Shown: positions 102 to 57,898, counted from the first letter of the stretch. The stretch: DNA of 64,000 nt from Chloroflexota bacterium (GCA_027310565.1 DAIDAP010000032.1:51611-115610); one strand, 5' to 3'. The notes: a model not told the origin generated them from the sequence alone. Program-made: numbers and translations.

Positions 102-805
102 GCCGGGATCACCCGGTCATACCGCTCGAGGGGCCGGCGCTCGACGGCGATCTCGCGCCGGCGGGCCGCACGCTGCTGCTCGAGCGCGCGCTTGTGCGTG
201 AGCGCCGTCACGGTGACGTGACGGGCGAACGTGCGCTCGTGAGCGGCCACGACCTCGCCCGTGTCGAGCGCGACCGCGCGTACTTCGGCCGGCGAGACGC
301 GCAGCTCGACGCGCCGACCGACGAAGGCGGGGTCGAGCGAGTAGTCGACGGTGTCGACGCGCGCGTACGGCTGCGGCGGCACGCGCAGGACCATGCGCCG
401 ATCGAGGTTTGGGAGCACCGCGGGGAGCGCTCGCAGGCCCTCCTGTGCGACGCGGTCGACCGGGCGCGCCCGCAGGGTCCGGTGGAAGCGGACGTTGGCC
501 GTGTCGTCGTACCAGCCGTCGAGCTGCTCCTGGAAGTTGGCCGGACCGGCGAAGAGCCGCGCCGGTTCGAAGCTCGTGCGCAGGTAACGATGACCCCGTT
601 CCTCGATCCCCTTCGCTTGCGGATCCCGAGGCGCCAGGAAGATGAAGCCGAGGGCGAGCTGCCCCAGGAAAGCGGTGAACGCTTCGGTGGGACGACCGCC
701 GCCGGCGTGGAGCGCGCCCTCGCGGTCCCAGACGAGCTTCTTTGGCAGACCGCCGATGCGCACAAGACAGCGCAGCAGACCGGCGATGGACTTGCCTCGA
801 TCTCG
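98..805 (-). pseudogene. istA: IS21-family transposase IstA, C-terminal ~235 aa only (copy A), 5' part displaced by the IS3 fragment
   Basis: ORF 98..949. IstA-like sequence (GGLPKKLVWDREGA...PRDPQAKGIEERGHRYLRTSF...) starts only around 800. Residues upstream of that read through the IS3 end and are not IstA-like. Confidence 0.75.
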
Positions 806-853
806 TGGACACCCTGATGCTTGGGCCCGAAGTGGCCCGGAAGGAGTGTTCGC

Positions 854-1153
854 ATGCCGAAGACGAGACCCGCCTATCCGGAGGAGTTCCGCGCCCGCGC
901 GGTCGACCTCGTGCGCAGCTCGGGCAAGAGCCAGAAGGAGGTCGCTCACGACCTCGGCGTCTCGGCGAACGCCTTGCGCGAGTGGGTAAAGCGCGCGGAC
1001 CTCGACGCCGGTCGTCGCACGGATGGTCTCACCACGAGCGAGCGTGAAGAGCTCGCGCGTCTGCGTCGCCAGGTCCGTGTGCTCACCGAAGAGCGCGAGA
1101 TCTTGGTAAAAGCGTCGGCCTTGTTCGTCGGGGAGACCGCACGGACCCGGTGA
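854..1153 (+). CDS. IS3-family transposase OrfA (HTH)
   Basis: MPKTRPAYPEEFRARAVDLVRSSGKSQKEVAHDLGVSANALREWVK...LRRQVRVLTEEREILVKA is a typical IS3 OrfA. RBS AAGGAG at 841-846. Confidence 0.8.
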   Translation: MPKTRPAYPEEFRARAVDLVRSSGKSQKEVAHDLGVSANALREWVKRADLDAGRRTDGLTTSEREELARLRRQVRVLTEEREILVKASALFVGETARTR

Positions 1154-1412
1154 CGATGTACGGGTTCGCGGAACGACAGAAGGCCCGCTTCCACATCGCC
1201 ACGATGGCCCGCGTCCTCGGCGTCAGCCGGAGCGGCCTCTACGCCCGTCGGACCCGGCCGAAGTCCCTGCGCGCGTTGGAGGACGAGGTCCTGGCCGACA
1301 TGATCAAGACCATCTACGCCGGAAGCCGCGGCACGTACGGCGCGCCGCGCATCCAGGCCGAGCTCGAGCTCGCCCACGGCATCAGCTGCAGCCGCCGGCG
1401 GATCGCTCGACT
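1150..1412 (+). pseudogene. IS3-family transposase OrfB, truncated after about 88 codons
   Basis: FAERQKARFHIATMARVLGVSRSGLYARR...GSRGTYGAPRIQAELELAHGISCSRRRIARL is an IS3 OrfB N-terminus. No DDE core follows. Confidence 0.7.
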
Positions 1413-1893
1413 CAATGATCCTCCCGACGCTGTTGTCGGCGAGTCCCCGGTACACCGTCTCGACGAGCTCGATCGCGCCGAAGTAGCGCACCCGCAGCCC
1501 CGCCTCGACCGCGGCGTGGCCGAGCGCGACGAGCAGATGGCTCTTGCCGGTGCCGGCCGGGCCGACGAGCACGAGGTTCTCCTTGGCCCGGATCCACTCC
1601 AGCGACGCCAGGTACTCGAAGGTCGCCCGGGGCACCGCGGACTCGGCGACCTTGAACTCGGCGAGGGTCTTGCGCACGGGGAAGGCGGCGCGCGCCAGGC
1701 GCGCGCGCTCGTTGGCCTCATCCCGCGAGCGCACCTCCGCCTCGACGAGCGTGCGCAGGAGCTCCTCCGGCGCCCAGCGCTGGACCTTCGCGATCTGCAG
1801 GACCTCCGGCGCCATCTTGCGTACGGCCCGCAGCTTGAGCCGTTTGAGCGCCTGCTCGAGATCCGGCGCGAGGGACGTCGCGGGCGTGCTCAT
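1412..1893 (-). pseudogene. istB: IS21-family IstB, N-terminal ~160 aa only
   Basis: Walker A GPAGTGKSHLLVALG is present. Homology ends at ...LADNSVGRIIE (about 1411), before the Walker B region. Confidence 0.75.
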
Positions 1894-3331
1894 GCGATGG
1901 CGTACTCGGCAAGCGAGCGCACCGGGACAGCCGGCAGCGTGTGCAGAAGCGGCGCGCCCGGTGCCGCCGGCTGCATCACGCCGCCCCCCGCGTCGAGGAT
2001 CGAGCGCACATCGGCCGCGCGATAGCGTCGGAAGGCGCTTGCGCGCTCGATCGCGGCCACGAGCGGGTCGCGTCCAAAGGCCGCCTCGAGCGAGGCGATC
2101 TCGGCGAGCTCGGCGGAAAGACGTGCGGTGCCGGCGGCCGCGGCGGCGCGCAGGAACGCTTCAGCCGCCGGGCCGAGCGCACAGAACGCGCGCTCCGCGG
2201 CGCTCTTGGGGCGCACCGCACGGGTCGGGGCTCTGCGCGCCCCGCCATAGTGCGCGTCGGCGATCGAGGCCTCCCCGGGGGCGACCGCGAGGTGCCGCGC
2301 CACCTCCTCGTCGCGGTAGCTGATGCAGATCTCGCCGTCGCGCGAGGCGACCGCGACCTTCTTGCCGACGAGGGCGTGCGGCACCGAATAGCGCGCCGAG
2401 CCGAAGCGGATCGTCGCCAGGCGGTCGACGGTGCGCAGCTCGCCAGAGCGGATCGTCACGCGCAGCGCGGGGAGCGGCCGCAGCGCCGCGCGCTCGACGA
2501 GGAGCCGCTCGGCCGGCACGGCAGAGATCTCGCTGTGCAGCGCGGCGTTCACCTCCGCGCACCACCGGAGCGCGTCGGCGTTGTGCTCGGCGAGCGACGC
2601 GGCGGGGTCGCCGGGGATGACCAGATCGTCCTTCGCGTACCCGACGAGGTTCTCGACGACACCCTTCGATTCGGGGTCGTGGCCCTCGCAGAAGTCCGGG
2701 CGGAAGCCGTAGTGGCTGGCGAAGCGCACGTACTCGGGGTGCGGCACGACGACGTTGGCGACGATGCCCGCGCGAAGACACCCCATGCGGTCGGCGAGCA
2801 CCACCGCCGGCACGCCGCCGAGGGTCTCGAAGCACTCGCCGAGCAGACGCAGCGTCGTGGCGCGGCGCTCGTCGAGGGCGAAGCGCACGAAGCGGACGCG
2901 GCTCCAGACGAGCACCGCGCTGAAGATGTGCAGCGGCCCGAGCTGGCCCCAGTCGATCGCGAGGTGCTCGCCGGGCGTCGGCAGCCAGGGTCGGTACACC
3001 CGCCGGCGCCGCTGCCACTCCGCCCGCTCGTCGTGCACGAGGCGCCGGAAGTTGCGCGCCGATCCGGCGTACCCCGCGGCGCGCGCCAGTGGCAGCAGGC
3101 GCTTGGCCAAGATGCGCCCGTCGGTCGCGGCGAGCTTCTCACGCACGAGGGCCCTGGCGACCGCGGTGTTGTGCGCCCGCGGCGGCCGGGGCGGCGGGGA
3201 GTCTTGGCGCACCCGCTCGATCACGCGCTTCACCGTCTTGTGCGTGGTGCCGCACAGCTCGGCGACAGCGCGCAGGCTGCCGAGGTCAGCGTACGCGGCG
3301 ACGATGTCCATGCGCTCTCTGGGAGACTTCA
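1890..3331 (-). CDS. istA: IS21-family transposase IstA (copy B, different sequence from copy A)
   Basis: HTH N-terminus (DIVAAYADLGSLRAVAELCGTTHKTVKR) and a DDE core. GTG at 3331 lies 8 nt after GGAGG. The longest ORF extends to 3380. Confidence 0.85.
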
Positions 3332-3427
3332 CTCTTGCGTCCTCCGGTGCGGTCGTGGTGTGCCTTGACAGCGACACCATCGCCCACCGGGGGACGCCCT
3401 GCGTTCAGGTGATCAGGTGCGGAAGGG

Positions 3428-7153: not shown

Positions 7154-8281
7154 TCAGGACGAGCGAGCGCGCGACGATGCCGGGGGTGCGCGGCGGAGGC
7201 CGAGCTGATCGATCCAGGCGCGCGACCGCCCGGTGACGACGACCGGGACGCGACGGAGCTCCGACGCCCGCTCGATCCCCGTGAGGAAGACCGCGGTGCG
7301 CAGCTCGAGCTCGAACGATGCCAGCCACTCCATGCAGGCATCCTCTCCCGCGAGCGCGGCCTGCAGCAGCGGGCGCCCGACGCCGACGAGCGTCGCCCCG
7401 AGGGCGAGCGCCTTCGCCGCGTCGAGGCCGCTGCGCACGCCGCCGGTCGCGATGAGCGGGAGGCCGGCGCCCGCGGCGGCGCGCACCGCGACCGCGGTGG
7501 GCACGCCCCAGTCGCGGAACCGCTCGCCGAGGCTCATGCGCAGCGTGTCGCCGGCGGCGCGCGCGCGCTGCGCCTCGATCGCCGCGAACGACGTCCCGCC
7601 CACGCCGCCGACGTCCACCGCCCGCACGCCGAGGCGGCGCAGCCGGCGGGCGACCGGGAGCGAGATGCCCGCGCCGGTCTCCTTCGCGATCACCGGCACC
7701 GGGCAGGACCGCACGAGCGCTCGGACCGCGGCCTCTGAGCCGCGCGCCCGCGTCTGCCCCTCCGGCTGCACCGACTCCTCGAGGTAGTTGAGGTGCAGCG
7801 CGAGCGCGTCGGCGCGGACCATCCGCACGATGCGGTGGATGTCCTTCGCGACGAGCGCGGGCTCGCGGTCCTGCCGCACGAGCTGCGAGATGCCGACGTT
7901 CGCGATGACGAACGCGTGCGGCGCCGCCTCACGGACGACCGCGTACGTGGGCGCGAGCACCGGGTCGCGCAGGGCGGCGCGCTGGCTCCCGACGCCGATC
8001 GCGATGCCCGCCCGCTCGGCGACGCGGCCGAGCAGCTCGTTGATCGCGATGGCCCGGCCGTGCCCGCCGGTCATCCCGGAGATCACCAGCGGCAGCCGCA
8101 GCGTGCGCCCGAGGAAGCGCGCCGAGAGGTCGATCGCCGCGGCATCCACGGTCGGCAGCGCGTCGTGCAGCAGGTGGACGTCCTCCCACCCGGCCGTCAC
8201 GCGCGTCTCGACATCGCCCTCGGCAGCGAGCTGCAGATGCTCCCCCTTGCGCCGGGCGATCTGCTCCGCGTCCTTGCTCAA
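7154..8281 (-). CDS. fni: Type 2 (FMN-dependent) isopentenyl-diphosphate delta-isomerase
   Basis: RKGEHL...LPLVISGMTGG...IAKETGAGIS...VDVGGVGGTSFAAIE...IATGGVRSGLD motifs. Start is TTG 8281 or upstream (the ORF reaches 8374). Confidence 0.85.
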   Translation of the reverse strand: MSKDAEQIARRKGEHLQLAAEGDVETRVTAGWEDVHLLHDALPTVDAAAIDLSARFLGRTLRLPLVISGMTGGHGRAIAINELLGRVAERAGIAIGVGSQRAALRDPVLAPTYAVVREAAPHAFVIANVGISQLVRQDREPALVAKDIHRIVRMVRADALALHLNYLEESVQPEGQTRARGSEAAVRALVRSCPVPVIAKETGAGISLPVARRLRRLGVRAVDVGGVGGTSFAAIEAQRARAAGDTLRMSLGERFRDWGVPTAVAVRAAAGAGLPLIATGGVRSGLDAAKALALGATLVGVGRPLLQAALAGEDACMEWLASFELELRTAVFLTGIERASELRRVPVVVTGRSRAWIDQLGLRRAPPASSRARSS

Positions 8282-8309
8282 TCTCCGGAGCCGCTCCTCG
8301 CTCGTGCCC

Positions 8310-9536
8310 TCACCGAAAGACGCCCTGCGCCTCCAACGCCGCGTACTCTGCACCGTCCAGCCGCAGCACGTCACGCATGACCTCCGCGGTGTGCTGGCCG
8401 AGGAGCGGGCCGGCCCGCTGCGGGCCCTGCTCGTCCTCCGACAACACGAACGGCGCGGCCATGAGCCGGACGTCGCCGATGACCGGATGCGCCGCGGTGC
8501 GCCACGCGCGGCGGTGCAGGAGCTGCGGGTCGGCGAACAGCTCGCCGATGCTCGCGACCGGCGCCGCGCGCAGGCCGCGGGCGCGCAGCCGCGCGACGGC
8601 GTCCTCGCGGGTCAGCGTGCGGGTCCACTCGGAGATGCGCTCGTCGAGCCACGCCTCCCGCTCCCGGCGGCCGGCGGCCGCGGCGAGCGCCGGCTCGCGC
8701 GCCCACGGGGGATCCCCCATCGCCTCGCCGAGGCGCGGCCACTCCTCGTCGGACCACACCGAGAGCGCGACCCACGCGTCGGGCTGCGCCGCCGTGGCGC
8801 GCGAGGGATAGACGCCGTGCGGCACGGCGACCCGGTCGCGGTTCCCAGCGCGCGCCGGCGTCGCGCCGTTCGCGGCGCGCTCGAGGAGCGCGGGCGCGAC
8901 GAACTGCAGGCCCGCCTCGTACTGCGAGAGATCGATGTCGCACCCCCGTCCGGTGCGCGCGCGCCGCTCGAGCGCGGCGAGGATCGCGACGACGCCGTAC
9001 CCCACGGCGATGTAGTCGATGTACGGGCCGTAGAGGATCGCCGGCGTCGCGCCGGGCTCGCCGAGCAGCGCGGTGAACCCGGCGAGCGCGGTGAGCTGGC
9101 TGCCGTACCCGGGATGCTGCGCGTGCGGCCCGGTCTGGCCCTGGTTGCAGCTCGAGAGGATCACGAGATCGTCGCGCGCCGCGCGCAGCGCCTCGCGCGA
9201 CAACCCGCGCCGCGCCAGCGTGCCGGCGGGGAACGACTCGATGAGCACGTCGGATGCCGCGACCAGCCGCAGCACGAGCGCGACGGCGCGCGGGTTCTTG
9301 AGGTCGAGCGTGACCGAGCGCTTTCCCGCGTTGTAGAAGGAGAACATCGCCGCGCCGTCCGGCGACGGCCGGTTGTCCTTGAACGGCGGGTAGGTGGAGC
9401 GGAACGGGTCGAGCACCGTCGCCGACTCCACGTGGATGACGTCGGCGCCGTGCGCCGCGAGGTACGTCCCGACGAGAGGCCCGGCGGCGGCCCAGCCGAG
9501 CTCCACGACGCGGACCCCGGCGAGCGGCGCGGTCAC
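8310..9536 (-). CDS. Class III CoA-transferase (CaiB/BaiF family), subunit 2
   Basis: N-terminus VTAPLAGVRVVELGWAAAGPLVGTYLAAHGADVIHVE. GTG 9536 overlaps the upstream stop (GTGA). The ORF-track extension to 10523 is a shadow. Confidence 0.85.
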   Translation of the reverse strand: MTAPLAGVRVVELGWAAAGPLVGTYLAAHGADVIHVESATVLDPFRSTYPPFKDNRPSPDGAAMFSFYNAGKRSVTLDLKNPRAVALVLRLVAASDVLIESFPAGTLARRGLSREALRAARDDLVILSSCNQGQTGPHAQHPGYGSQLTALAGFTALLGEPGATPAILYGPYIDYIAVGYGVVAILAALERRARTGRGCDIDLSQYEAGLQFVAPALLERAANGATPARAGNRDRVAVPHGVYPSRATAAQPDAWVALSVWSDEEWPRLGEAMGDPPWAREPALAAAAGRREREAWLDERISEWTRTLTREDAVARLRARGLRAAPVASIGELFADPQLLHRRAWRTAAHPVIGDVRLMAAPFVLSEDEQGPQRAGPLLGQHTAEVMRDVLRLDGAEYAALEAQGVFR

Positions 9537-10711
9537 GCCGTCACCGCGCTGCGAAGCGTCTCGGCCCACACCTCGCGGTCGTGCTCGCCGAGACGCGGCG
9601 GCGGCCGGCGGACCGCCGGGCGCTCGCCGTCGAAGAGCGCGAAGCCGCCGGCGAACGTGAGCGTCCGCCCGTCGATCGCGACGTCCTGCCAGAACGAGCG
9701 CGCGCGCAGCTGCTCGTCGTCGAAGATGTCGCCGGCGTCGGCGACCGGGTACCCGAGCATGTTCCGCGCGATCACGCCGGCGAAGAACTCGCGCTTGGTG
9801 AGCGTGCTCAGGAACGCGCCGACCTCCCCCTCGAGCGCGTCCACCTCGGCCTGCGTCAGCGTGCGGTTGTCGAAGGCGTCCCAGTCGATCGCCCGGAAGA
9901 GCGGCGCCGCGTGGTCCCGCTCCGCCATCCACGCGCAGAGCATCCGGCCGGTGTGGCGTCCGATCGGTCCGCCCTGGATCGCGAACGACACGTGCCCGTC
10001 CGCGCAGGGCCAGACGTTGCGGAAGCGCGCGCCGACGATGCTGCGTCCGAGAAGGTACGGGCCGAGCCGGACGTGCTCCTCGCGCGCGACGTCGGCGAAC
10101 ACCGCGGCGGGCGGGTGGACGGTGATCATGCTCTGCTGCCCCGAGACGTCGACGTGCTGGGCGCGCCCGACGCGGTCGCGGCCGAGGATCGCGACGAGCG
10201 CGCCGGCCGCCGCGTACATGCCGGTCCAGAACGGCGACTGCGGCAGCGTCGTCCGGACCGGCGCGCGGCCTGGCTCGCCCGCGAGCCACAGGCTCCCGCC
10301 GGCGGCGGTGACCTCGAGGTCGGACGCGGGCACCCCCGCGAGCGGACCGGTCGTGCCGTACGGCGTGACGGTGACGACGACCTGACGCGCGCCGCACCCG
10401 AGCGGATCGACGATCGGCTCGGACTGCACGACGAGGTCGGCGCGACGGACGAGGGCGTCGCGGCGGGCCGCGTCGGCGGGGTCGAGCACGACGCCGCGCT
10501 TGTTCGCGTTCAGCGCCATCCACAGCAGGCCGCGGTCCGGATGCGCCGCGCCGCCGGCGAACGGCGGCGTGCGCCGCACGGGATCGCCCGCCGGCGGCTC
10601 ACACTTGACGACGTCGGCGCCGAGGTCCGCCAGCGTCCGCCCGCAGTGCGCGGCCGCGGCGGCGCCCCACGGGTCGTCCGAGGCGAGCTCGACGACGCGC
10701 AGATCGAGCAC
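9533..10711 (-). CDS. Class III CoA-transferase (CaiB/BaiF family), subunit 1
   Basis: MLDLRVVELASDDPWGAAAAAHCGRTLADLGADVVKCEPPAGDP... is family III-like. It starts 5 nt after the UbiD-like stop. Confidence 0.85.
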   Translation of the reverse strand: MLDLRVVELASDDPWGAAAAAHCGRTLADLGADVVKCEPPAGDPVRRTPPFAGGAAHPDRGLLWMALNANKRGVVLDPADAARRDALVRRADLVVQSEPIVDPLGCGARQVVVTVTPYGTTGPLAGVPASDLEVTAAGGSLWLAGEPGRAPVRTTLPQSPFWTGMYAAAGALVAILGRDRVGRAQHVDVSGQQSMITVHPPAAVFADVAREEHVRLGPYLLGRSIVGARFRNVWPCADGHVSFAIQGGPIGRHTGRMLCAWMAERDHAAPLFRAIDWDAFDNRTLTQAEVDALEGEVGAFLSTLTKREFFAGVIARNMLGYPVADAGDIFDDEQLRARSFWQDVAIDGRTLTFAGGFALFDGERPAVRRPPPRLGEHDREVWAETLRSAVTA

Positions 10712-10716
10712 CTGCC

Positions 10717-12333
10717 CTAGCGTCCGCTCTTGGCCAGCACCTCAGCCCACGACTGCGTCTTCATCAGGGCCTTGCCGCCGGCGATCTGGTCCGGGTCGAA
10801 CCACGCCGCGGGGTCGACCCGGTCGATCGGGTACACCGGCCGCATGAAGTCGTTCTCGAAGCCGTAGGGGACCGTGGCGTCGATGGCCATGCCGCCCTCG
10901 AAGCGCGTGTTCATCGCGGTCCACTGCGCGTTCCCGGCGCTGAGCCGCTGCTCCGGGATGAAGGTCTGGCCCGCGCCGCCGGGGGTCGGGCTCCACACGT
11001 CGTCGCGCGGGTTCACGCGCGTCGTGAGCGACCAGATGATGTCGTCCATCGAGTAGATGTCGACGTCGCTGTCGACCGCGATGCACAGACGCAGGCCCGA
11101 CGAGCAGCTCATCGCCGCCGCGAGGAAGTTGCGCACGAACCCGTCGTCGGTCTTGAGGCGCTTGCGCACCTGGAGGATCGCGCCGGCCCAGTCGGTCATC
11201 GGGAACGGGATGTTCACGTCCTGGATGAGCCCCGGCTGGATGCGCTCGCACAGCTCGAAGAACGCGGCCTCGCGCACCGTCGTGTCGATGTTGTTGCAGT
11301 CGTACATGTGCACGCCCATCGGGTAGATGAACGGCCGCTCGGCGCGCCTGCGCATGGTGATCGCGGTGACGTGGAAGGTCGGCGCCTTGTACGCCTTGCC
11401 CATGTACCCGGCCCACTCGGGATGGAAGTGAAAGCGTCCCTGGACGTCGGCCTTCTCCGCCTCCGCGGTCTCGTAGCGCTTGTCGCGCGGGTGCAGGTAG
11501 CCCTCGAGCGAATATTCCGCGTCCGCGACCGACCACGCGTCGACCGTCGCGGCCTTGGTGATCCGCACCGGGTAGCCCTGCACCGCGCCGGCCGCGCCGA
11601 GCTCGTCGCCGCCGCGCGGCAGGACGACGTAGTCGAACCCGCCGCCGGCGAGCAGCGTCGCCGCCGCCGGCAGCCCGAAGTTCACGGTGAGCGGCACCGG
11701 CTCGTCGCGGTAGTACTTCGTCATCACCTGCCACATGTGCGAGCCGGGCGAGATCTGGAACGTGCCGACGTTGCCCCAGCGGAAGTTCATGCGGTTGTAG
11801 CCGATGTGGCTCCCGCCCCAGAACCGATCGCCGACGACGACGCTGTTGCCCGAGCCGATCGTGATCTCGGACTCGAGATGGGTGTGGCGGATCGGGAGGA
11901 TGTACTTGTTCACGTCGAGGTCGTCGGTGACGACCTCCTGCATGACCGGGGCGTCGGACCGCGCGACCTCCTCGTTCGGGATCGGGTGCGTGAGCGCGTG
12001 CGCGAGCCTGCGCGTCCGCTCGGTCCGGTCCGCCCAGCCGAACATCCGGTCGACGATGTCCATGTTCGCGAAGAAGTTCGTGATCGCGCGGACGTGCGGG
12101 TAGCCCTTGACGTTGTTGAAGAGGATCGGGTAGCTGCCGTCGAAGTGCTTCTGGATCCCGGTGAGCTGCAGGTCGCCCGACACCATCGTGTCCGTCTCGA
12201 GGAGCAGACCCTCGGCGCGGAGCCACTCGACCGTCGCCGGAAGCGAGCGCAGCGCCTCCTTGGGCGCCGGCGGACCCTGCGGATCCTTCAGCCGCGTCCC
12301 TGCGCGCTTGAGCTCGGCCTGCGCCGTCGCCAT
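10717..12333 (-). CDS. UbiD-family (prFMN-dependent) decarboxylase/carboxylase, divergent member (UbiD-1, 538 aa)
   Basis: UbiD-like throughout (PILFNNVKGYP..., ...TVNFGLPAAATLLAGG...). The usual GPFGEfTGYY motif reads HPEWAGYMGKAY. ATG 12333 lies 6 nt after GGGAGG. Confidence 0.8.
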   Translation of the reverse strand: MATAQAELKRAGTRLKDPQGPPAPKEALRSLPATVEWLRAEGLLLETDTMVSGDLQLTGIQKHFDGSYPILFNNVKGYPHVRAITNFFANMDIVDRMFGWADRTERTRRLAHALTHPIPNEEVARSDAPVMQEVVTDDLDVNKYILPIRHTHLESEITIGSGNSVVVGDRFWGGSHIGYNRMNFRWGNVGTFQISPGSHMWQVMTKYYRDEPVPLTVNFGLPAAATLLAGGGFDYVVLPRGGDELGAAGAVQGYPVRITKAATVDAWSVADAEYSLEGYLHPRDKRYETAEAEKADVQGRFHFHPEWAGYMGKAYKAPTFHVTAITMRRRAERPFIYPMGVHMYDCNNIDTTVREAAFFELCERIQPGLIQDVNIPFPMTDWAGAILQVRKRLKTDDGFVRNFLAAAMSCSSGLRLCIAVDSDVDIYSMDDIIWSLTTRVNPRDDVWSPTPGGAGQTFIPEQRLSAGNAQWTAMNTRFEGGMAIDATVPYGFENDFMRPVYPIDRVDPAAWFDPDQIAGGKALMKTQSWAEVLAKSGR

Positions 12334-12367
12334 CTCATGCCTCCCGCGAGGAAGTCCCTCGACCGCG

Positions 12368-12396
12368 ATAATGGTATGACCATTCGTCCAGGTCAA
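12368..12396 (-). promoter_or_regulatory. Sigma-70-like promoter of the UbiD-1 operon: -35 TTGACC, 17-nt spacer, -10 CATTAT
   Basis: Minus strand reads TTGACC tggacgaatggtcatac CATTAT. The spacer and -10 are covered by the dyad at 12370-12384. Confidence 0.5.
12370..12384. promoter_or_regulatory. Predicted GntR/FadR-type operator, site 1: AATGGTATGACCATT
   Basis: Perfect 6-bp arms AATGGT/ACCATT with a 3-nt spacer, in the divergent UbiD-1/bicupin-1 gap. Confidence 0.6.
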
Positions 12397-12425
12397 CCGC
12401 GCACGGCAGCGCGGAGGCTGCCTAG

Positions 12426-12440
12426 AATGGTCAGACCATT
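12426..12440. promoter_or_regulatory. Predicted GntR/FadR-type operator, site 2: AATGGTCAGACCATT
   Basis: Perfect arms. Overlaps the bicupin-1 ATG (12427). Confidence 0.6.
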
Positions 12441-13509
12441 GGCCGACAAGCTCCTCCTCGACCCGTACCTCGACTGGGTGAAGGGCGAGGGGATCCCCGT
12501 GTACGAGGACTTCGGCTTCGACCTGCCGGCGCTCGAGGTACGGCCGTGGTCGCGCATGGACGCGCTCGGCGCGTACGTCCACTGCCTGGGACGCGGGGAC
12601 TGGGTGAACATGTACGTCTGCGAGATCCCGCCCGGCGGGCAGACGTCGCCCCAGCGGCACCTCTTCGAAGAGGTCGTGTACGTCCTCTCCGGACGGGGCA
12701 GCACCAGCGTCGAGACGCCGGGTGGTGAGCGCACGTTCGAGTGGCACACCGGGAGCCTGTTCGCGCTGCCGCTCAACGCGCGGTACCGGCACTTCAACGG
12801 GAGCGGGCGCGAGGCGGCGCGCATCGTGTCGACGACGGACCTACCGATGATGCTCGACGTCTTCCGCGACGACGACTTCATCTGGCGCAACGACGCGGTC
12901 TTCGCCGAGCGCTTCGGCGACGAGCGGCACTACCGCGGCGAGGGGACGTTCGTCCCGACGCGCCCGGGGCGCCACATGTGGGAGACGAACTTCGTTCCCG
13001 ACCTGCGCACGTTCGAGCTGCGGACGTGGAAGGAGCGCGGCGCGGGCGGCAGCAACATCATGTTCGTCCTCGCCGAGGGCACGATGCACGCGCACATGAG
13101 CGAGATGCCGGTCGGCACGTACAAGAAGGGCCATCGCCACGGCGCGGACTTCCACGTCATGACGGTCACCGGGACCGGGTACAGCCTGTACTGGTACGAA
13201 GGCGAGAACGAGCTGCGCCGCTTCGACTGGAAGCACGGCGCGGTATTCGCGCCGACCGACATGCTCTACCACCAGCACTTCAACACCGGCGCCGAGCCCG
13301 CGCGCTACCTCGCGACCGCGTTCGGCGGCCTGCGCTACCCGACGCTCGCCGACAAGCGCAAGACGTTCATGGGCATGGACGTGAGCGTGAAGGAGGGCGG
13401 CCGACAGATCGAGTACGAGGACGAGGACCCTCGGATCATCCGCATGTACGAGGAGGAGCTGCGGCGCAGCGGCGTGCCGTCGAAGATGCGGGAGCTCATC
13501 CGGACCTAA
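12427..13509 (+). CDS. Bicupin protein 1 (two cupin barrels; gentisate-dioxygenase-like architecture, function unknown)
   Basis: GGAGG lies 9 nt upstream. Cupin motifs PGGQTSPQRHLFEEVVYVLSGRG / RYRHFN and KKGHRHGADFHV / LYHQHFNTG. Confidence 0.75.
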   Translation: MVRPLADKLLLDPYLDWVKGEGIPVYEDFGFDLPALEVRPWSRMDALGAYVHCLGRGDWVNMYVCEIPPGGQTSPQRHLFEEVVYVLSGRGSTSVETPGGERTFEWHTGSLFALPLNARYRHFNGSGREAARIVSTTDLPMMLDVFRDDDFIWRNDAVFAERFGDERHYRGEGTFVPTRPGRHMWETNFVPDLRTFELRTWKERGAGGSNIMFVLAEGTMHAHMSEMPVGTYKKGHRHGADFHVMTVTGTGYSLYWYEGENELRRFDWKHGAVFAPTDMLYHQHFNTGAEPARYLATAFGGLRYPTLADKRKTFMGMDVSVKEGGRQIEYEDEDPRIIRMYEEELRRSGVPSKMRELIRT

Positions 13510-13549
13510 AGACGCGAGCTCTTCCGGCGGGGCCTGCGGGGCCGGCCCG

Positions 13550-13564
13550 AAATGTCATACCTTT
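13550..13564. promoter_or_regulatory. Weak operator-like site 3: AAATGTCATACCTTT
   Basis: Keeps the GT-N3-AC core and 9 of 12 arm positions. Lies 47 nt upstream of the bicupin-2 ATG. Confidence 0.3.
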
Positions 13565-13610
13565 TCCCCGGAGAGGACGGGCGGACGAAAGAGAGAGGAG
13601 CGATGGATCG

Positions 13611-14645
13611 ATGAGCGAGGATCAGCGCGTGTTCCTCCGCGGTCTCGACTCGGCGTCGTACGGACTGAAGGAGCAGCGCGCGAGACAGCGCGCCGCCCCG
13701 CGCGTCCGCCGCGCGGGCACCGTCGTGGACGACGCGCGCGTCGGCCACTCCGGCGACGACGATTCGGGACGCTCGAAGACGTACTGGATGCTCGGACCGG
13801 GCGACGACGACTTCCTCACCCAGACCCTCCAGGTCCACTTCGTCGAGCTCATGCCCGGCGGGACCAACCACGGGCACGGCCACCAGAACGAGGCGCACTT
13901 CTACATCCTCGAAGGCAAGGGGTACGAGATCCACGACGGAAAGCGCTACGAGTGGGAGAAGGACGACCTCGTCATCGTGCACACCGACAGCGTGCACAAG
14001 CACCACAACCTGTCGGCGACGGAGCGGGCGCTCGCGATCGTGCTCAAGGCGAAGGCGACGTGGATGATGCTCGGCCTGTGGCAGCAGGGACGGCCCGCGC
14101 CGTTCCCCGACGGCGACCGCTACGAGGCGCGGCGGGACTGGTCGGAGCTGTGGAGCCCCGGCTGGGAGGACAAGAAGAAGGTCATCCGGCGCGCCGACAC
14201 GACGTGGGAGACGACGCGCGACGGCCGGGTCCGGGTGATCCTCTCACCGGACCGCACCGACGCCCGGACACACAGCCTCGATGTGTACCAGCAGGAGATC
14301 GCGCCGGGCGGCCGCTCGGGGAGGCACTGGCACATGGCGGACGAGGCGGTGTACGTCCTCGCCGGCAGCGGCCACAGCCTGCACTGGGAGGTCGAGGCGG
14401 AGATCGCCGACCGGTACTACGCGCGGATCGCGAAGGAGCCGACACGCTGGGAGTTCTCCGCCGGCGACCTGCTCTACGTCCCACAGAACACGGTGCACCA
14501 GCACTTCAGCACCGGGACGGGGCCGCTCCTCCTCCTGTCGGCGCAGAACCGCCTGTTCAGGCACCTGGGCTACGACCGGGTCGTGCACCTCGAGGACGCG
14601 CCCGAGCACCGGGAGCGCGGCGCCGCGGCCGCCTCCACCCGGTAA
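13611..14645 (+). CDS. Bicupin protein 2 (both barrels with HxH...E / H metal motifs)
   Basis: GAGGAG RBS. GGTNHGHGHQNEAHFYILEG...VHKHHN and GGRSGRHWHMADEAVYVLAG...VHQHFSTG. Confidence 0.8.
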   Translation: MSEDQRVFLRGLDSASYGLKEQRARQRAAPRVRRAGTVVDDARVGHSGDDDSGRSKTYWMLGPGDDDFLTQTLQVHFVELMPGGTNHGHGHQNEAHFYILEGKGYEIHDGKRYEWEKDDLVIVHTDSVHKHHNLSATERALAIVLKAKATWMMLGLWQQGRPAPFPDGDRYEARRDWSELWSPGWEDKKKVIRRADTTWETTRDGRVRVILSPDRTDARTHSLDVYQQEIAPGGRSGRHWHMADEAVYVLAGSGHSLHWEVEAEIADRYYARIAKEPTRWEFSAGDLLYVPQNTVHQHFSTGTGPLLLLSAQNRLFRHLGYDRVVHLEDAPEHRERGAAAASTR

Positions 14646-14654
14646 CGCCGCCGC

Positions 14655-15245
14655 TCAGGACACGCGGGGCCGGTCGGGACCCGTCCAACGGCGGAAGAGC
14701 GCGTGCTCGACGCCGAGCTGGTCGAGCGCCTTCCCCACGCTGTGGTCGACGACGTCCATGAGCGTCTTCGGCTTCTGGTAGAAGCCCGGCACGGGCGGGA
14801 GGATCACCGCCCCCGCGAGGGTGAGCTCGCGCATGAGCCGCAGGTGCGTCGCGTTCAGCGGCGTCTCCCGGACCATGAGCACGAGCTTGCGCCGCTCCTT
14901 GAGGTGCACGTCCGCGGCACGGACGATGAGGTTGTCGTCCAGCGCGTTCGCGATCGCCGCCATCGTGCGGATGCTGCACGGCGCGACGAGCATCCCGCCG
15001 GTGAGGAACGTCCCGCTCGCGAGCGGCGCCGCGAGGTCCTTCTCGTCGTGCACCACGTCGGCGAGCGCGACGACGTCCTCGTACGAGCGATCGGTCTCGT
15101 ACGCGATCGTCGCCCTCGCGCCGCTCGACACGACGAGGTGCAGCTCGAGCTCGCGTCGCAGGCGGATCGTCTCGAGGGCGCGGATCCCGTAGATCGCGCC
15201 GGACGCGCCGGAGATCGCGACGACGATCCGCGAGGCCGCGGTCAC
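14655..15245 (-). CDS. ubiX: Flavin prenyltransferase UbiX
   Basis: RIVVAISGASGAIYGIRALE...MLVAPCSIRTMAAIANALDDNLIVRAADVHLKERRKLVLMVRETPL is typical UbiX/Pad1. Confidence 0.9.
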   Translation of the reverse strand: MTAASRIVVAISGASGAIYGIRALETIRLRRELELHLVVSSGARATIAYETDRSYEDVVALADVVHDEKDLAAPLASGTFLTGGMLVAPCSIRTMAAIANALDDNLIVRAADVHLKERRKLVLMVRETPLNATHLRLMRELTLAGAVILPPVPGFYQKPKTLMDVVDHSVGKALDQLGVEHALFRRWTGPDRPRVS

Positions 15246-16009
15246 GACGAGCGGCGGCGCGACCGGACGAGCCGCGGCAGCGCCGGCGTCGGGCGCTCGG
15301 CGGACTCCGCGCGCTCCGCCAGGCTGCGCCGCAGCCGCTTCTCGAAGTCCTCGAGGTGCGTGACCATGATCTCGCGCGCGCCCTCGCCGTCCCGCCGGCG
15401 CACCGCCTCCACCAGCTCCTCGTGCGCCTTCTGGGTGGCGCGGCCGGTCTTCTCGTCGCGCAGGTCGCGGATCGCCGGGACGAGCAGCTGGCGGTACGCG
15501 TCCACCGTGGCCTCGAGGACCTCGTTCCTCGCCGCGCGCGCGAGCACGACGTGGAAGTCCATGCTCGCGTCGGCGTGCGTGATCGGCTCGCGCAGCAGCG
15601 GACGCGAGGCCTCGACGCTCTGCACCAGGCGGCTGAGCGCGCCGGCGTCGGCGCGCTGTGCGGCGAGCTGCGCGGTGGCGGCCTCGACGATGGTGCGGGC
15701 CTCGGCCAGCTCGGAGAGCGTCATGCGCTTCAGCCGGATCATCGTGGAGATCGATTCGGCGACGCGGTCGGTGTTCGCGTCGGCGACGAACGCGCCGCCC
15801 ATCGCGCCCACCTTCACCCGGATGAGACCGCGCGCCTCGAGCACGCGCAGCGCGTCGCGCACCGTGATGCGCGAGACGCCGAACTGCTCGGCGAGCTCGC
15901 GCTCGGACTGGAGGCGATCACCCGCCGCCAGCTCGCCGCCGAAGATCGCGCGCTCGATCTGGGTGACGATCTCACCCGACGCGCGCGATTGCCGCACCGG
16001 TGTGAACAC
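15242..16009 (-). CDS. GntR-family transcriptional regulator, FadR subfamily (FCD C-terminal domain)
   Basis: wHTH motif LQSERELAEQFGVSRITVRDALRVLEARGLIRV plus an all-helical C-terminal domain. Confidence 0.85.
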   Translation of the reverse strand: MFTPVRQSRASGEIVTQIERAIFGGELAAGDRLQSERELAEQFGVSRITVRDALRVLEARGLIRVKVGAMGGAFVADANTDRVAESISTMIRLKRMTLSELAEARTIVEAATAQLAAQRADAGALSRLVQSVEASRPLLREPITHADASMDFHVVLARAARNEVLEATVDAYRQLLVPAIRDLRDEKTGRATQKAHEELVEAVRRRDGEGAREIMVTHLEDFEKRLRRSLAERAESAERPTPALPRLVRSRRRSS

Positions 16010-16029
16010 GGCCGAATCCTAATCCGCCG

Positions 16030-16731
16030 CTACCGCAGGTCCGCGAGGGCGCCCGCGACCCGCGCCTTCTCGAGCAGGTACGTCCAGGTCTTCTCGACGA
16101 CGAAGCGGCTCGCGAGCATCTCGCGCACGCGGCGGATCTCGTCGGGTGTGTACGGCCTGACCGCCCCGAGCTGAGCCGCGAGGTGGTTCCGCTGAGCGCT
16201 CTCCTCGAGGTAGAGCGCGGCGGTGACGCACTCCCGCACGTCGCCCCCGACGACGAGCGCGCCGTGCCCGCGCAGCAGCACCGCGCTCGCGGCGGCCATG
16301 TCGCGCGCGACGGGCAGGCCGAGCTCGTCGGTGCGGATGAGCTCGGGGTTGTCGTGCACGGGGATGGGCCCGCCGAAGAACGCGCCGGCGTTCGACGCGG
16401 GCTCGAGCGGCCTCCCGGCGACCGCGAAGGCCGTCGCGTACAGCGGATGGAAGTGCGCGACGCTGCGCACCTCCGGCTTCGCGCGGTACGCCGCGAGGTG
16501 GAGCGCCGTCTCGGACGGCGGCAGCGCCTCGGAGAGGCGCTGCCCGTCGGAGACGCGCACCGCGGCGATGAGCTCGGGCGTCACCGTGAGCCGGCTCGCG
16601 CCCCGGTCGCAGATGTGGACGACGTCGCCGTCGCGGATGGAGATGTGGCCGTGCATGTCGAACAGCCCCGCGACCGCGAGCACCCTCGTCGCGATCGCCG
16701 TCTCGACGCGGAGATCGGTGGCCACCTTCAT
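16030..16731 (-). CDS. Class II aldolase/adducin-domain protein
   Basis: LFDMHGHISIRD...ETALHLAAYRAKPEVRSVAHFHPLYATAF...LLRGHGALVVG. ATG 16731 follows GGAGGGG. Confidence 0.75.
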   Translation of the reverse strand: MKVATDLRVETAIATRVLAVAGLFDMHGHISIRDGDVVHICDRGASRLTVTPELIAAVRVSDGQRLSEALPPSETALHLAAYRAKPEVRSVAHFHPLYATAFAVAGRPLEPASNAGAFFGGPIPVHDNPELIRTDELGLPVARDMAAASAVLLRGHGALVVGGDVRECVTAALYLEESAQRNHLAAQLGAVRPYTPDEIRRVREMLASRFVVEKTWTYLLEKARVAGALADLR

Positions 16732-17282
16732 GTCGGGTACCCCTCCGGCGCTTCCTCGCTCGTCCAGTGCCCGATGCGCATGTAGCGGCGCCCGTACCGC
16801 AGGAGCGGGTCCCGGCGATGCTCGTCGACGCGGTCGGCGACCACCTCGCCGACGAAGAGCAGGTGGTCGCCGGTCGCGATCGTCTCGCGCACGCGGCACC
16901 ACAGGATCGCGACGCTCCCGGCGACGCCCGGCGCGACGAGGCCCTGCGGCGCCTCGACGGCCGGGATCCGCAGCGTCGCGAGCTTGTCCGGCCCCTCGGC
17001 GTGCTTCCCGGCGGCGACCGCGAGGTCCTGCTGGGAGTCGTGGAGCAGCGAGACGCTGAACTCGCCGCTCCCCTGGATGAGCCGCGTCGTGCGCGATCCG
17101 GTGTGCTCGGCGATCGCGATCATCGCGGGCGCGAGCGAGACGTACATCGTCGTCCCCGTCGCGCAGGAGCGCTCGCCACCGTGCGCCGCGCCGACGATCG
17201 CGACGGCGTGCGCGATGCGCGAGAGGACGCGCCGCGCGACGTCGTAGCGATGGCCCTCCGTCTCGCCGCCGGGATCCCTCAT
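16728..17282 (-). CDS. Flavin reductase (HpaC/split-barrel FMN-binding family), no partner monooxygenase nearby
   Basis: VAIVGAAHGGERSCATGTTMYVSLAPAMIAIAE...FSVSLL...HLLFVGEVV. 4-nt overlap with the aldolase-like gene. Confidence 0.7.
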   Translation of the reverse strand: MRDPGGETEGHRYDVARRVLSRIAHAVAIVGAAHGGERSCATGTTMYVSLAPAMIAIAEHTGSRTTRLIQGSGEFSVSLLHDSQQDLAVAAGKHAEGPDKLATLRIPAVEAPQGLVAPGVAGSVAILWCRVRETIATGDHLLFVGEVVADRVDEHRRDPLLRYGRRYMRIGHWTSEEAPEGYPT

Positions 17283-17291
17283 GCGTGGTCC

Positions 17292-17306
17292 AATGGTAAT
17301 AACATT
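17292..17306. promoter_or_regulatory. Predicted GntR/FadR-type operator, site 4: AATGGTAATAACATT
   Basis: 11 of 12 arm positions match. Lies in the 55-bp divergent gap between the flavin reductase operon and UbiD-2. Confidence 0.55.
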
Positions 17307-17337
17307 CGGTGCGCGGACGACCTCAGGAGGTGCGGCG

Positions 17338-18813
17338 ATGGCGACCACAGTGCGCACGGAGACCGCGGTCCCGACGGACCTGCGCGAATGGCTCCAGCGG
17401 GTCGACCGGCTCGGCGAGCTGCAGACGGTGACCGGCGCGACCGCCGAAGAGGACATCGGCATGGCGACCGAGCTCCTCGGGCGCACCCGCCCCTCCAAGG
17501 CGACGATCTTCGACGAGATCCCCGGCCACCGGAAGGGCTGGCGCGTGCTGTCGAACGCGCTCGGCTCGTTCGGGCGCGTCGCGGTGACGCTGGGGCTGCC
17601 GACGGACGCGTCGCCGCACGAGCTCGTCCGCCTCTGGCAGGAGCGCGTCCGGAAGGGCATCCCGACGATCGCGGCCGAGGTCGTGAAGGACGGCCCGGTC
17701 TTCGAGAACGTCATGCGCGGCGCCGAGGTCGACCTCCTGAAGTTCCCCGCGCCGAAGTGGCACGAGTTCGACGGCGGCCGGTATCTCGGCACCGGCAGCT
17801 TCGACGTGACCATGGACCCCGACGAGGGCTGGGTGAACCTCGGCACCTACCGGGTGATGGTCCAGAACAGGAACACGCTCGGCTTCTACATCTCGCCCGG
17901 CAAGCACGGGCGCCAGCACCGCGACAAGTGGTTCGCCAAGGGCGAGAAGATGCCGGTCGCGTTCGTCCCGGGCGGCGACCCGCTCCTGTTCCTCGCCGCG
18001 TGCACCGAGATCCCGTACGGGGTCAGCGAGTACGACTGGGCGGGCGGCGTGCGCGGCGTGCCGTACCGCGTGGTGAAGGGTCCGGTGACCGGCCTGCCCA
18101 TCCCCGCCGACGCGGAGATCGTCGTCGAGGGGTTCGCCGACGCGGCGGACAAGATGAGCGAGGGTCCCTTCGGCGAGTGGACCGGCTACTACGCCTCGGG
18201 CGAGCGCGAGGAGCCGGTCATGCGCGTCGAGGCGGTCTACCACCGCAACGACCCGATCGTCCTCGCGTCGCCGCCGAACGTGCCGCCCGACGAGCAGTCC
18301 TTCTACCGCGCGTTCATGCGCTCGGCGCGGCTGCGCGGCGACCTCGAGGCGGCGAGCATCCCCGGCATCGTCGGCGTGTGGTGCCACGAGGTCGGCGGTT
18401 CCCGCCTCTTCAACGCGATCTCCATCAGCCAGCGCTACGCGGGGCACGCGCGCCAGGTCGGACACGCCGCGGCGACCGTGCACACCGGGGCGTACCTCGG
18501 CCGCTACACGGTCGTCGTCGACGACGACATCGACGTGATGGACCTCGAGGAGGTCATGTGGGCGGTGTGCACGCGCTCGGACCCGGCCGAGTCGATCGAC
18601 ATCATCCCGCGCATGTGGTCGGGCCCCCTCGACCCGCGCATCCACCCCGACCGCAAGGGCCTCTCGTCGCGCGCGGTGATCGACGCGACACGGCCCTGGG
18701 AGTGGCGCGACCGCTTCCCGCGCTCGCAGCTGCCGACGCCGGAGACGAAGGCGAAGGCGCTCGCGAAGTGGGGCTGGCTCGTCGGCAAGGGAGAGCGTCC
18801 GAAGGGCCGCTAG
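17338..18813 (+). CDS. UbiD-family decarboxylase, canonical motifs (UbiD-2, 491 aa)
   Basis: AGGAGG RBS at 17325-17330. MSEGPFGEWTGYYAS motif. UbiD-like throughout. Confidence 0.85.
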   Translation: MATTVRTETAVPTDLREWLQRVDRLGELQTVTGATAEEDIGMATELLGRTRPSKATIFDEIPGHRKGWRVLSNALGSFGRVAVTLGLPTDASPHELVRLWQERVRKGIPTIAAEVVKDGPVFENVMRGAEVDLLKFPAPKWHEFDGGRYLGTGSFDVTMDPDEGWVNLGTYRVMVQNRNTLGFYISPGKHGRQHRDKWFAKGEKMPVAFVPGGDPLLFLAACTEIPYGVSEYDWAGGVRGVPYRVVKGPVTGLPIPADAEIVVEGFADAADKMSEGPFGEWTGYYASGEREEPVMRVEAVYHRNDPIVLASPPNVPPDEQSFYRAFMRSARLRGDLEAASIPGIVGVWCHEVGGSRLFNAISISQRYAGHARQVGHAAATVHTGAYLGRYTVVVDDDIDVMDLEEVMWAVCTRSDPAESIDIIPRMWSGPLDPRIHPDRKGLSSRAVIDATRPWEWRDRFPRSQLPTPETKAKALAKWGWLVGKGERPKGR

Positions 18814-19599: not shown

Positions 19600-20580
19600 T
19601 CACTCCGGGTAGACGACGGTGTCGTAGCCGAGGAGCTTGAACAGACGGTTCTGCCCGGAGAGCAGCCGCAGCGGCTCGCGGCCGGTGTTGACGTGCTGGT
19701 GCACGGTGTTCTGCGGGATGTAGACGACGTTCCCCTGCTCGAACTCCCAGGTCCCCGGCTCCTTCGCGACGTGCGCGTAGTAGCGGTCGGCGATCTCCGC
19801 GGCGACGTCCCACTGCCGGCTCTCGCCGCGGCCGGACTCGACGTACAGGACCTCGTCGGCCATGTGCCAGTGCTTGGCCGAGCGCGCGCCGGGCGCGATC
19901 TCCTGCTCGACGAGGTCGACGCTCGCGATGCGGATGTCCGGCTGCGCACCCGAGACGATGACGCGGACGCGCCCGTCGCGCGTGTCCTCCCACCTGGTCG
20001 CCGATCGCTTCACGACCTTGCGCTTCGCCGCGGCGCCGGGTGTCCAGAGCCGCGACCAGTCGGTGCGCGGCCCGTAGCGGTCGGCGTCCTCGAGCGGTCC
20101 GCTCCTCGCCTGCTGCCAGAGCCCGAGGAAGAGCCATAGCGCCTTGGCCTTGAAGATGATCCCGTGGACCTCGCGGGCCGCGTCGGTGTTGAAGTGCTGG
20201 TGCACGCTGTCGGCGTGCACGACCATCGCGTCGCCCGCCTCCCAGTCGTAGCGCTCGCCGTCGTGGATGTCGTAGCCCGTCCCGTCGAACACGTAGAAGA
20301 GCGCCTCGTTCTGGTGACCGTGCCCCTCGTTCTTGCCGCCGGGCGCGAGGTCGACGGTGTGGACCTGCAGGCTCTGCGTGTAGAAGGGGTCGTCCCCCGG
20401 ACCGACGAGCCACTCCGCCCACGACTCGGCGCCGATGCCCTCGTAGCCCGCGGTCGTCACGCCGTGTCCGACGACGAACCCCTCGCGCCTCACGCGCGGC
20501 GCGCCGTGCTGGAGCCTGCGCTGCTCCGCGAGGCCGTAGCGCTCGGACGTGAGGCCGCGCAGGAACACGCGCTCAGGCAT
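19600..20580 (-). CDS. Bicupin protein 3 (paralog of bicupin 2)
   Basis: Long runs shared with bicupin 2 (VFLRGL..YGL.EQR, GHGHQNEA.FY...GYxIHDGxRYxWE, HWHMADE..YV..G.G, IPQNTVHQH). Confidence 0.8.
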   Translation of the reverse strand: MPERVFLRGLTSERYGLAEQRRLQHGAPRVRREGFVVGHGVTTAGYEGIGAESWAEWLVGPGDDPFYTQSLQVHTVDLAPGGKNEGHGHQNEALFYVFDGTGYDIHDGERYDWEAGDAMVVHADSVHQHFNTDAAREVHGIIFKAKALWLFLGLWQQARSGPLEDADRYGPRTDWSRLWTPGAAAKRKVVKRSATRWEDTRDGRVRVIVSGAQPDIRIASVDLVEQEIAPGARSAKHWHMADEVLYVESGRGESRQWDVAAEIADRYYAHVAKEPGTWEFEQGNVVYIPQNTVHQHVNTGREPLRLLSGQNRLFKLLGYDTVVYPE

Positions 20581-34736: not shown

Positions 34737-34774
34737 GCGCCTTAGAGTACCCGCACGCGTTCGACCCGCACGCC

Positions 34775-34794: not shown

Positions 34795-34829
34795 CCGAGG
34801 CGATCGCGCGCTACAGCGGACGGCGGGCC

Positions 34830-57894: not shown

Positions 57895-57898
57895 CCGG

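Follow-up and report, generated by a model that had tools for sequence, protein, structure and literature searches.

Analysis of a 64,000-nucleotide stretch of DNA from a Chloroflexota bacterium (GCA_027310565.1, DAIDAP010000032.1:51611-115610; hereafter the window, 72% GC) revealed a gene for a type-2 isopentenyl diphosphate (IPP) isomerase (IDI-2), fni, at the end of a predicted phthaloyl-CoA decarboxylase (Pcd) operon. Judged by its sequence, the fni product is an IDI-2 of a distinct subgroup, which has glutamate at the active-site position 160 (S. shibatae numbering). Genes of this subgroup are strongly linked to systems that depend on prenylated flavin mononucleotide (prFMN), namely those of UbiD-family decarboxylases and the flavin prenyltransferase UbiX, and their co-location with UbiD and UbiX genes exceeds chance. 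The explanation that we favour, and consider reasonably probable as a whole, is that the Glu160 subgroup is dedicated to UbiX/UbiD systems and that fni feeds the synthesis of prFMN. The operon and the elements on which the argument rests are as follows:

12368..12396, minus strand: sigma-70-like promoter motif (TTGACC-17-CATTAT) ahead of pcd, in the gap between it and the divergent gene (consensus scan, motif match only)
10717..12333, minus strand: pcd ('UbiD-1'), with the Pfam domains UbiD_N, UbiD and UbiD_C, matched by phmmer to PDB entries 8PMK/8OZ5
9533..10711, minus strand: family III CoA-transferase, subunit A (PF02515, 179.7 bits)
8310..9530, minus strand: family III CoA-transferase, subunit B (PF02515, 323.5 bits)
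7154..8281, minus strand: fni, IDI-2 (TIGR02151), the last gene of the pcd operon
7775..7795, minus strand: codons of the active-site motif HLNYLEE, with Glu168 (codon 7778-7780) in the position of Gln160 of the S. shibatae enzyme

Gene calls in the window are backed by third-position GC contents (GC3) of 0.9-0.97. The five elements singled out in an earlier note on this stretch (two UbiD-family genes, ubiX, a flavin reductase gene and fni) all proved to be real genes in GC3-supported frames, at the positions given there or within a few codons of them. The fni product scores 355.9 bits against TIGR02151 (equivalog cut-off 281.3) and aligns over its full length with solved IDI-2 structures (residues 8-363 on 4-357 of 2ZRU, 230 bits; also 1VCF). 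As the note had stated, fni lies directly downstream of the UbiD-1/CoA-transferase genes. All four genes are on the minus strand. The intergenic gaps along pcd-A-B-fni are 5, about 2 and 28 nucleotides (nt), the last measured from the stop of CoA-transferase B to the probable TTG start codon of fni at 8281, and a search for a terminator-like site at this junction found none. The note had also claimed that no other isoprenoid gene is near, and indeed there is none among the family-matched (Pfam/NCBIfam) GC3-supported open reading frames (ORFs) of the window; four GC3-supported ORFs match no Pfam or NCBIfam family.

Residues equivalent to R7, K8, H11, R98, H155, E161 and K193 of the S. shibatae enzyme are retained in the fni product, and these (di)phosphate-, Mg- and FMN-site residues are invariant throughout the Glu-type alignment. 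HLNYLEE of the window protein corresponds to the S. shibatae motif H155-L-N-x-x-Q160-E161. Glu160 is present in all of the 120 nearest fni homologues and in every pcd-linked fni whose motif is covered by the alignment, including the distant genes of loci L019 and L039. Among 150 diverse IDI-2 representatives the position is Gln in 131 and Glu in six, all six being the nearest relatives of the window protein; it is His in a further six and Met in six. In a comparison with 128 other IDI-2 sequences, residue 160 is the sole column that sets the UbiD/UbiX-linked subgroup apart, and no further position splitting the Glu-type from the Gln-type alignment passed the thresholds. His155 and the Gln (written 'Gln161') are listed among the substrate-contacting residues, next to flavin N5 (PMC3509576). 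IDI-2 works only with reduced FMN and forms N5-alkyl flavin adducts with substrate analogues (PMC3509576).

The neighbourhoods of fni were surveyed in a sample of 90 loci, compiled from a scan of metagenome contigs with an fni alignment and from ten fni-based look-ups, neighbouring genes being disregarded. The retrieved loci span ~10 kb around each match. One scan pattern favoured the Glu type, which makes the ratio of Glu-type to Gln-type loci meaningless and leaves their neighbourhoods usable. A UbiD, UbiX or pcd-type transferase gene was found within 5 kb of Glu-type fni in 52 of the 59 evaluable loci (within 500 nt in 48) as against one of the 19 Gln-type loci (Fisher p = 4e-11), counts that overstate independence, many Glu-type loci being kin by descent. 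Counted per 70%-identity cluster, the figures are 16/19 for the Glu type versus 1/7 for the Gln type (p = 0.002), the Gln-type control being dominated by one clade beside nrtR-nad genes. Four of the seven Glu-type loci without such a neighbour have no upstream flank at all.

The linkage takes many forms: there are at least eight arrangements of the genes around Glu-type fni, the GC content of the contigs ranges over 61-72%, and the UbiD partners are of three kinds. It stands between the transferase and UbiD-2 genes in L019 (pcd-A-B-fni-UbiD2) and precedes pcd in L039. In L083 and L084 fni overlaps the following aldolase-fold gene (aldolaseII) by 4 nt, and in L010 the two are ~30 nt apart. The most telling evidence of linkage comes from the distant Glu-type genes (55-61% identity). 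Among these, ubiX comes directly before fni in L144, L157 and L159, and fni directly before ubiX in L087, L152, L158, L160 and L161; L168 and L170 share the string reductase-ubiX-UbiD2-fni-aldolaseII, a flavin reductase gene is followed by fni in L156, and fni of L137, L145 and L165 lies beside UbiD genes only 27-32% identical to UbiD-2. The nearest Gln-type clade adjoins nrtR and NAD-biosynthesis genes, and the other Gln-type contexts are unrelated, one of them being near a UbiA prenyltransferase gene. The place of the nearest Gln-type clade beside the NrtR regulator is conserved (L090, L127, L130 and their relatives); nadA/B/C lie beyond NrtR in L090, and a squalene-hopene-cyclase-like gene follows in L127.

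A separate set of 80 loci was fetched around Pcd homologues, and the window proteins were mapped onto them. In all of the approximately 20 sufficiently long Limnocylindria-type pcd loci, fni (57-83% identity) comes after pcd and the transferase pair. Three long metagenome contigs that had been picked via fni, not via pcd, carry the same pcd-A-B-fni operon. The tie between fni and the UbiX/UbiD system, which the earlier note had suggested together with a survey of gene neighbourhoods, is thus upheld as far as fni is concerned: it is seen within the pcd operon, across varied arrangements and UbiD partners, and specifically with Glu160. The closest homologues of Pcd (88-92% identity) and of fni (up to 85%) come from metagenome-assembled genomes (MAGs) named Candidatus Limnocylindria or Chloroflexi; the host, a soil bacterium, is therefore most likely a Limnocylindria-like member of the Chloroflexota. 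An actinomycete host, considered on account of the 72% GC, was rejected, the nearest homologues (83-92% identity) being from Limnocylindria/Chloroflexi MAGs.

The pcd product aligns over its full length with the solved Thauera Pcd (8PMK/8OZ5; phmmer, 770 bits, E 1e-230) at 62% identity over 512 aligned positions; with the other solved UbiD enzymes its score does not exceed 127 bits. This similarity identifies UbiD-1 as a Pcd orthologue, a predicted prFMN-dependent enzyme of the UbiD family. As a Pcd it would convert phthaloyl-CoA to benzoyl-CoA and need prFMN, K+ and Fe2+. The gene at 9533..10711 likely encodes a subunit of succinyl-CoA:phthalate CoA-transferase; its homologues (40-77% identity) adjoin pcd in most of the 80 loci, in several phyla. 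The best solved relative of subunit B is a benzylsuccinate CoA-transferase subunit (224 bits), and this gene too is syntenic with pcd across phyla. Both transferase genes are 40-52% identical to the pcd-adjoining pairs of Betaproteobacteria MAGs. Overall, the synteny of pcd with two CoA_transf_3 genes in the 80 loci extends over Chloroflexota, Dormibacterota, Actinomycetota, Acidobacteriota and Proteobacteria. In the window ubiX lies 2.3 kb from pcd, and the trio of pcd, CoA-transferase and ubiX recurs across phyla. The earlier note had rightly recognized the UbiD-1 and CoA-transferase genes and had missed that together they probably make up the known phthaloyl-CoA pathway. With this pathway as its core, the whole region is an aromatic-dicarboxylate catabolic cluster and more than a cofactor island. 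Clusters of denitrifiers contain a CoA-transferase, Pcd and a UbiX-like protein (2026 review, PMC13040137), and high levels of Pcd are thought to trap the labile phthaloyl-CoA thioester (PMC13040137).

In the mechanism that we propose, the two-subunit family III CoA-transferase would make phthaloyl-CoA, and Pcd with its prFMN would decarboxylate it to benzoyl-CoA. As the first step of cofactor supply, the fni isomerase would turn IPP into dimethylallyl diphosphate (DMAPP) and so provide enough dimethylallyl donor for UbiX, to be used as such or after the loss of one phosphate (DMAPP to dimethylallyl monophosphate, DMAP). UbiX would then prenylate reduced FMN (FMNH2), and as the third step the resulting prFMN would load Pcd and UbiD-2. 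The flavin reductase, presumably co-transcribed with ubiX, may give the reduced FMN that serves UbiX as substrate and IDI-2 as cofactor. Because phthaloyl-CoA is labile, Pcd would be needed at high cellular levels; an abundant Pcd would in turn need much cofactor, and this makes a mechanism of DMAPP supply attractive. The identities of the genes, the packing of the operon and the comparative linkage of Glu-type fni with UbiD/UbiX are observed, whereas the activity of the isomerase, the way the flux runs, the conversion of DMAPP to DMAP and the part played by the reductase are inferred. The proposal of the earlier note that the isomerase raises the DMAPP pool is the simplest mechanism, and comparative genomics (the 52 of 59 Glu-type loci) supports the genomic linkage; the effect on DMAPP itself is a prediction.

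The ubiX string and UbiD-2 are encoded on the far side of pcd:

14655..15245, minus strand: ubiX, flavin prenyltransferase (NF004685, 253 bits versus 188; TIGR00421, 229 bits versus 108.9)
15242..16009, minus strand: gntR, GntR/FCD-family regulator (PF00392 and PF07729), its stop overlapping the ubiX start by 4 nt
16030..16752, minus strand: aldolaseII, class II aldolase-fold protein (PF00596, 116 bits)
16728..17282, minus strand: flavin reductase, HpaC-type NAD(P)H:flavin reductase (PF01613, 101.3 bits versus 27)
17338..18813 (possible start 17281), plus strand: UbiD-2, with three UbiD domains (TIGR00148, 276.5 bits versus 244.85)

The flavin reductase is HpaC-like but stays below the equivalog cut-offs, with weak HpaC, HsaB and StyB matches and PDB matches to 3NFW and 2ECR. 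Its gene is the first of the tightly packed minus-strand string reductase-aldolaseII-gntR-ubiX. As FMNH2 is a substrate of UbiX and a cofactor of IDI-2, it is reasonable to think that the reductase may supply FMNH2 for prFMN synthesis. There is, however, a considerable chance, if somewhat short of even, that it has nothing to do with prFMN supply and serves a two-component monooxygenase encoded elsewhere, or merely reduces the FMN of IDI-2. The protein is after all of the HpaC/StyB type, and homologues beside ubiX or fni were found in just five loci (the window, L007, L156, L168 and L170), being absent from most pcd and fni loci. Moreover, in L168 a luciferase-like monooxygenase gene lies directly upstream of reductase-ubiX and may be an ordinary partner, which weighs against the supply role. 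On the other hand, no luciferase-like or HpaB-like partner monooxygenase was found among the family-matched GC3-supported ORFs of the window, just as the earlier note had said, and the reductase heads a string that ends in ubiX. In L007, L168 and L170, moreover, the homologue is the gene immediately preceding ubiX, and in L156, a locus with no monooxygenase, it immediately precedes fni. Of the two supply roles put forward in the earlier note, that of the reductase as FMNH2 source is the less secure: the recurrence beside ubiX or fni in five loci speaks for it and the monooxygenase of L168 against it.

Of the other genes in this string, gntR keeps its pairing with ubiX in L003, L010, L013, L014 and L018. 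The aldolaseII product has a weak match to PhtC, 3,4-dihydroxyphthalate decarboxylase (78 bits), and its best PDB match is 2Z7B (Mlr6791; 75 bits), which we take to be an aromatic ortho-dicarboxylate decarboxylase. The protein is probably a metal-dependent enzyme that decarboxylates a hydroxy-aromatic ortho-dicarboxylate. In other loci its gene is often the one that immediately follows fni or ubiX. We considered it as a part of the cofactor supply, but its relatives being aromatic ortho-dicarboxylate decarboxylases, a catabolic function is more likely.

A different explanation of the Glu160 signature is that the protein is a new enzyme of prFMN biogenesis built on the IDI-2 scaffold and no longer an ordinary IPP:DMAPP isomerase. 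It might convert isopentenyl phosphate to DMAP, the donor preferred by UbiX, or process a flavin-prenyl adduct via proton shifts near N5. The single column that separates the UbiD/UbiX-linked subgroup is substrate-proximal and near the N5 of FMN, IDI-2 is known to make N5-alkyl flavin adducts (PMC3509576), and no DMAPP phosphatase was seen in the cluster; a Gln-to-Glu change at such a site would leave room for altered chemistry. We nevertheless consider this explanation unlikely. All the diphosphate, Mg and FMN ligands are kept, the protein scores far above the IDI-2 equivalog cut-off, and the exchange of one Gln for Glu may have little kinetic effect. Flavin prenylation is already provided for, since these clusters still contain UbiX. 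If the Glu160 IDI-2 were indeed dedicated and altered in its chemistry, UbiX would not be the sole specialised enzyme of the prFMN pathway.

Least probable, in our view, is that fni encodes just a housekeeping IPP isomerase of the lineage, its adjacency to pcd being an inherited synteny with no functional meaning: the product does pass the IDI-2 equivalog model and the downstream flank of fni (M23 peptidase, NUDIX, GAF-GGDEF and GroES/EL genes) is conserved core synteny of the clade, yet the linkage persists through at least eight gene orders and the whole 61-72% range of contig GC, extends to three kinds of UbiD partner, includes ubiX as an immediate neighbour in either order, places fni inside operons at some loci (such as L083, with its 4-nt overlap) and holds at the level of clusters, while the nearest Gln-type genes are found in unrelated contexts such as nrtR-nadABC.

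Several observations weigh against a dedicated role in prFMN supply and temper our preference for it, in addition to the shared descent of many Glu-type loci and the composition of the Gln-type control described above. In the approximately 55 pcd loci of Dormibacterota, Actinomycetota, Acidobacteriota and Proteobacteria, fni is missing from the surrounding 10 kb; Pcd therefore has no general need for a linked isomerase. All Limnocylindria-labelled IDI-2 sequences in the match lists are of the Glu type, with no Gln-type paralogue so labelled among them, and fni could thus be the only IDI of this lineage (a literature search on Limnocylindria and mevalonate found nothing). Three Glu-type loci with adequate flanks (L142, L149 and L166) show no UbiD or UbiX gene. 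In a neighbour-joining tree most Glu-type sequences form one clade of 61, but small Glu and Gln groups are interleaved and the internal branches are short (0.006-0.027), so that this tree does not resolve whether the Glu type is monophyletic. Finally, bacterial UbiX is said to prefer the monophosphate DMAP, a preference attributed to White et al. 2015, and the window shows no evident DMAPP phosphatase.

A small NUDIX hydrolase gene, on the opposite strand and a few kb downstream of fni in L005, L007, L012, L081 and L082, was considered as a possible DMAPP-to-DMAP phosphohydrolase. It was rejected as that step, being on the opposite strand, part of the conserved flank of these five loci only and absent from the window. 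In the L142 locus the Glu-type fni (3-896, plus strand) lies at the contig edge, directly after a PEP-utilising (PPDK_N) gene that recalls phenylphosphate synthase. Phenylphosphate synthase works with UbiD-type carboxylases.

UbiD-2 can be regarded, from its sequence and conservation, as a second conserved prFMN-dependent decarboxylase. Its best solved relative is the phenazine-1-carboxylate decarboxylase PhdA (7PDA, 364 bits), and about 40 loci of Chloroflexota, Dormibacterota, Actinomycetota, Acidobacteriota and Proteobacteria have orthologues (47-61% identity) in the vicinity of pcd. These orthologues are often accompanied by an NMT1-type binding protein and an ABC transporter. Three cupin genes are also associated with the cluster:

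12391..13509, plus strand: cupin1 (PF07883), 372 aa, divergent from pcd
13506..14645, plus strand: cupin2, a gentisate-dioxygenase-like bicupin (PF07883 in three stretches, PF00190)
19600..20580, minus strand: cupin3, a bicupin (PF07883 and PF00190)

The first of them has no close solved relative, and its divergent pairing with pcd is conserved in many phyla. The window further contains an ABC transporter and a thiamine diphosphate (ThDP)-dependent enzyme. The latter (24775-26532, plus strand) resembles benzoylformate decarboxylase and acetolactate synthase and recurs near the clusters of L005, L014, L019, L046 and L156; an aldehyde dehydrogenase is also present in L156 and L168. A three-subunit molybdenum hydroxylase is encoded at 28582-32442 (minus strand), its large subunit being nearest to the alpha subunit of 4-hydroxybenzoyl-CoA reductase (418 bits, below the cut-off), and L083 has a similar enzyme immediately upstream of its pcd cluster. 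A benzoyl-CoA (box) pathway following Pcd was looked for, but the 477-aa di-iron protein at 33396-34829 (minus strand) is only distantly BoxB-like (54 bits versus a cut-off of 499). This protein is nevertheless a candidate for an aryl-CoA oxygenase acting on benzoyl-CoA made by Pcd.

Mobile elements were noted as well. One or more IS21-type elements at 98-3380 (minus strand) comprise an IstA-like transposase (1890-3380), an IstB ATPase (946-1893) and a second, partial Mu-type transposase (98-949). They occupy the place that GroES/GroEL have in related genomes, after the GAF-GGDEF gene, and their insertion thus broke a conserved synteny. The SufB gene (55327-57978, minus strand) is split by an intein that carries a LAGLIDADG homing-endonuclease domain.

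Taken singly, the Pcd/CoA-transferase/UbiX system, IDI-2 and HpaC-type reductases have been described before. Like the anaerobic/hybrid phthalate clusters of the denitrifying Betaproteobacteria Thauera chlorobenzoica, Aromatoleum aromaticum and Azoarcus sp. PA01, which encode succinyl-CoA:phthalate CoA-transferase, Pcd and a UbiX-like protein, the window has a Pcd (62% identical), two adjoining family III CoA-transferase genes and ubiX. Unlike them, it belongs to a high-GC Chloroflexota host, probably of the Limnocylindria; its ubiX is paired with gntR and stands apart from pcd; its operon ends in IDI-2; and a second UbiD, the three cupins and the aldolase-fold decarboxylase are associated with it. 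The terms 'isomerase', 'dimethylallyl' and 'Chloroflex' are absent from the 2026 phthalate review (PMC13040137). Compared with the known IDI-2 of S. shibatae (2ZRU), Thermus thermophilus (1VCF) and Bacillus subtilis (1P0K), the fni product is homologous over its full length and keeps the phosphate, Mg and FMN residues, but has Glu for the near-universal Gln160 and is found in UbiD/UbiX catabolic operons instead of an isoprenoid or housekeeping context.

As in other UbiX/UbiD systems (E. coli ubiX/ubiD, vdcBCD/bsdBCD and Pad1/Fdc1), the flavin prenyltransferase gene is near the decarboxylases served. To our knowledge, these known systems encode no dedicated source of prenyl donor or FMNH2, whereas the window co-encodes an isomerase and some loci also a flavin reductase. 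The reductase shares the Flavin_Reduct domain and similar size with HpaC/StyB-type reductases but has no oxygenase partner in the window and is packed and co-oriented with ubiX. A functional link of a similar kind exists in the archaeal modified mevalonate pathway, where a UbiD-type anhydromevalonate-phosphate decarboxylase and UbiX are followed by IDI-2. There, however, UbiD makes the isoprenoid precursor, whereas the UbiD proteins of the window are aromatic-acid and aryl-CoA decarboxylases, with the isomerase as an accessory. Our literature search turned up no paper that relates UbiX, prFMN or Pcd to IDI, isopentenyl or isomerase terms. As far as we found, what appears to be new is the operonic joining of IDI-2 to Pcd/UbiX systems, the Glu160 subgroup that marks this joining and the broad distribution of Pcd operons among soil Chloroflexota and other uncultured phyla.

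The source of the dimethylallyl donor and reduced FMN for prFMN is poorly defined and limits heterologous biocatalysis with UbiD decarboxylases and carboxylases. An IDI-2 subgroup (HLNxLEE) that travels with ubiX/ubiD would give a testable candidate for a dedicated supply, a one-residue marker for annotation and a simple co-expression strategy for obtaining holo-UbiD enzymes. In addition, Pcd-type operons (62-92% identity) are found in many soil MAGs of Chloroflexota, Dormibacterota, Acidobacteriota and Actinomycetota. Their presence in these four phyla suggests that the 'anaerobic' phthaloyl-CoA route for plasticiser-derived phthalate is far commoner in soils than one would gather from the small number of denitrifiers and sulfate reducers studied.

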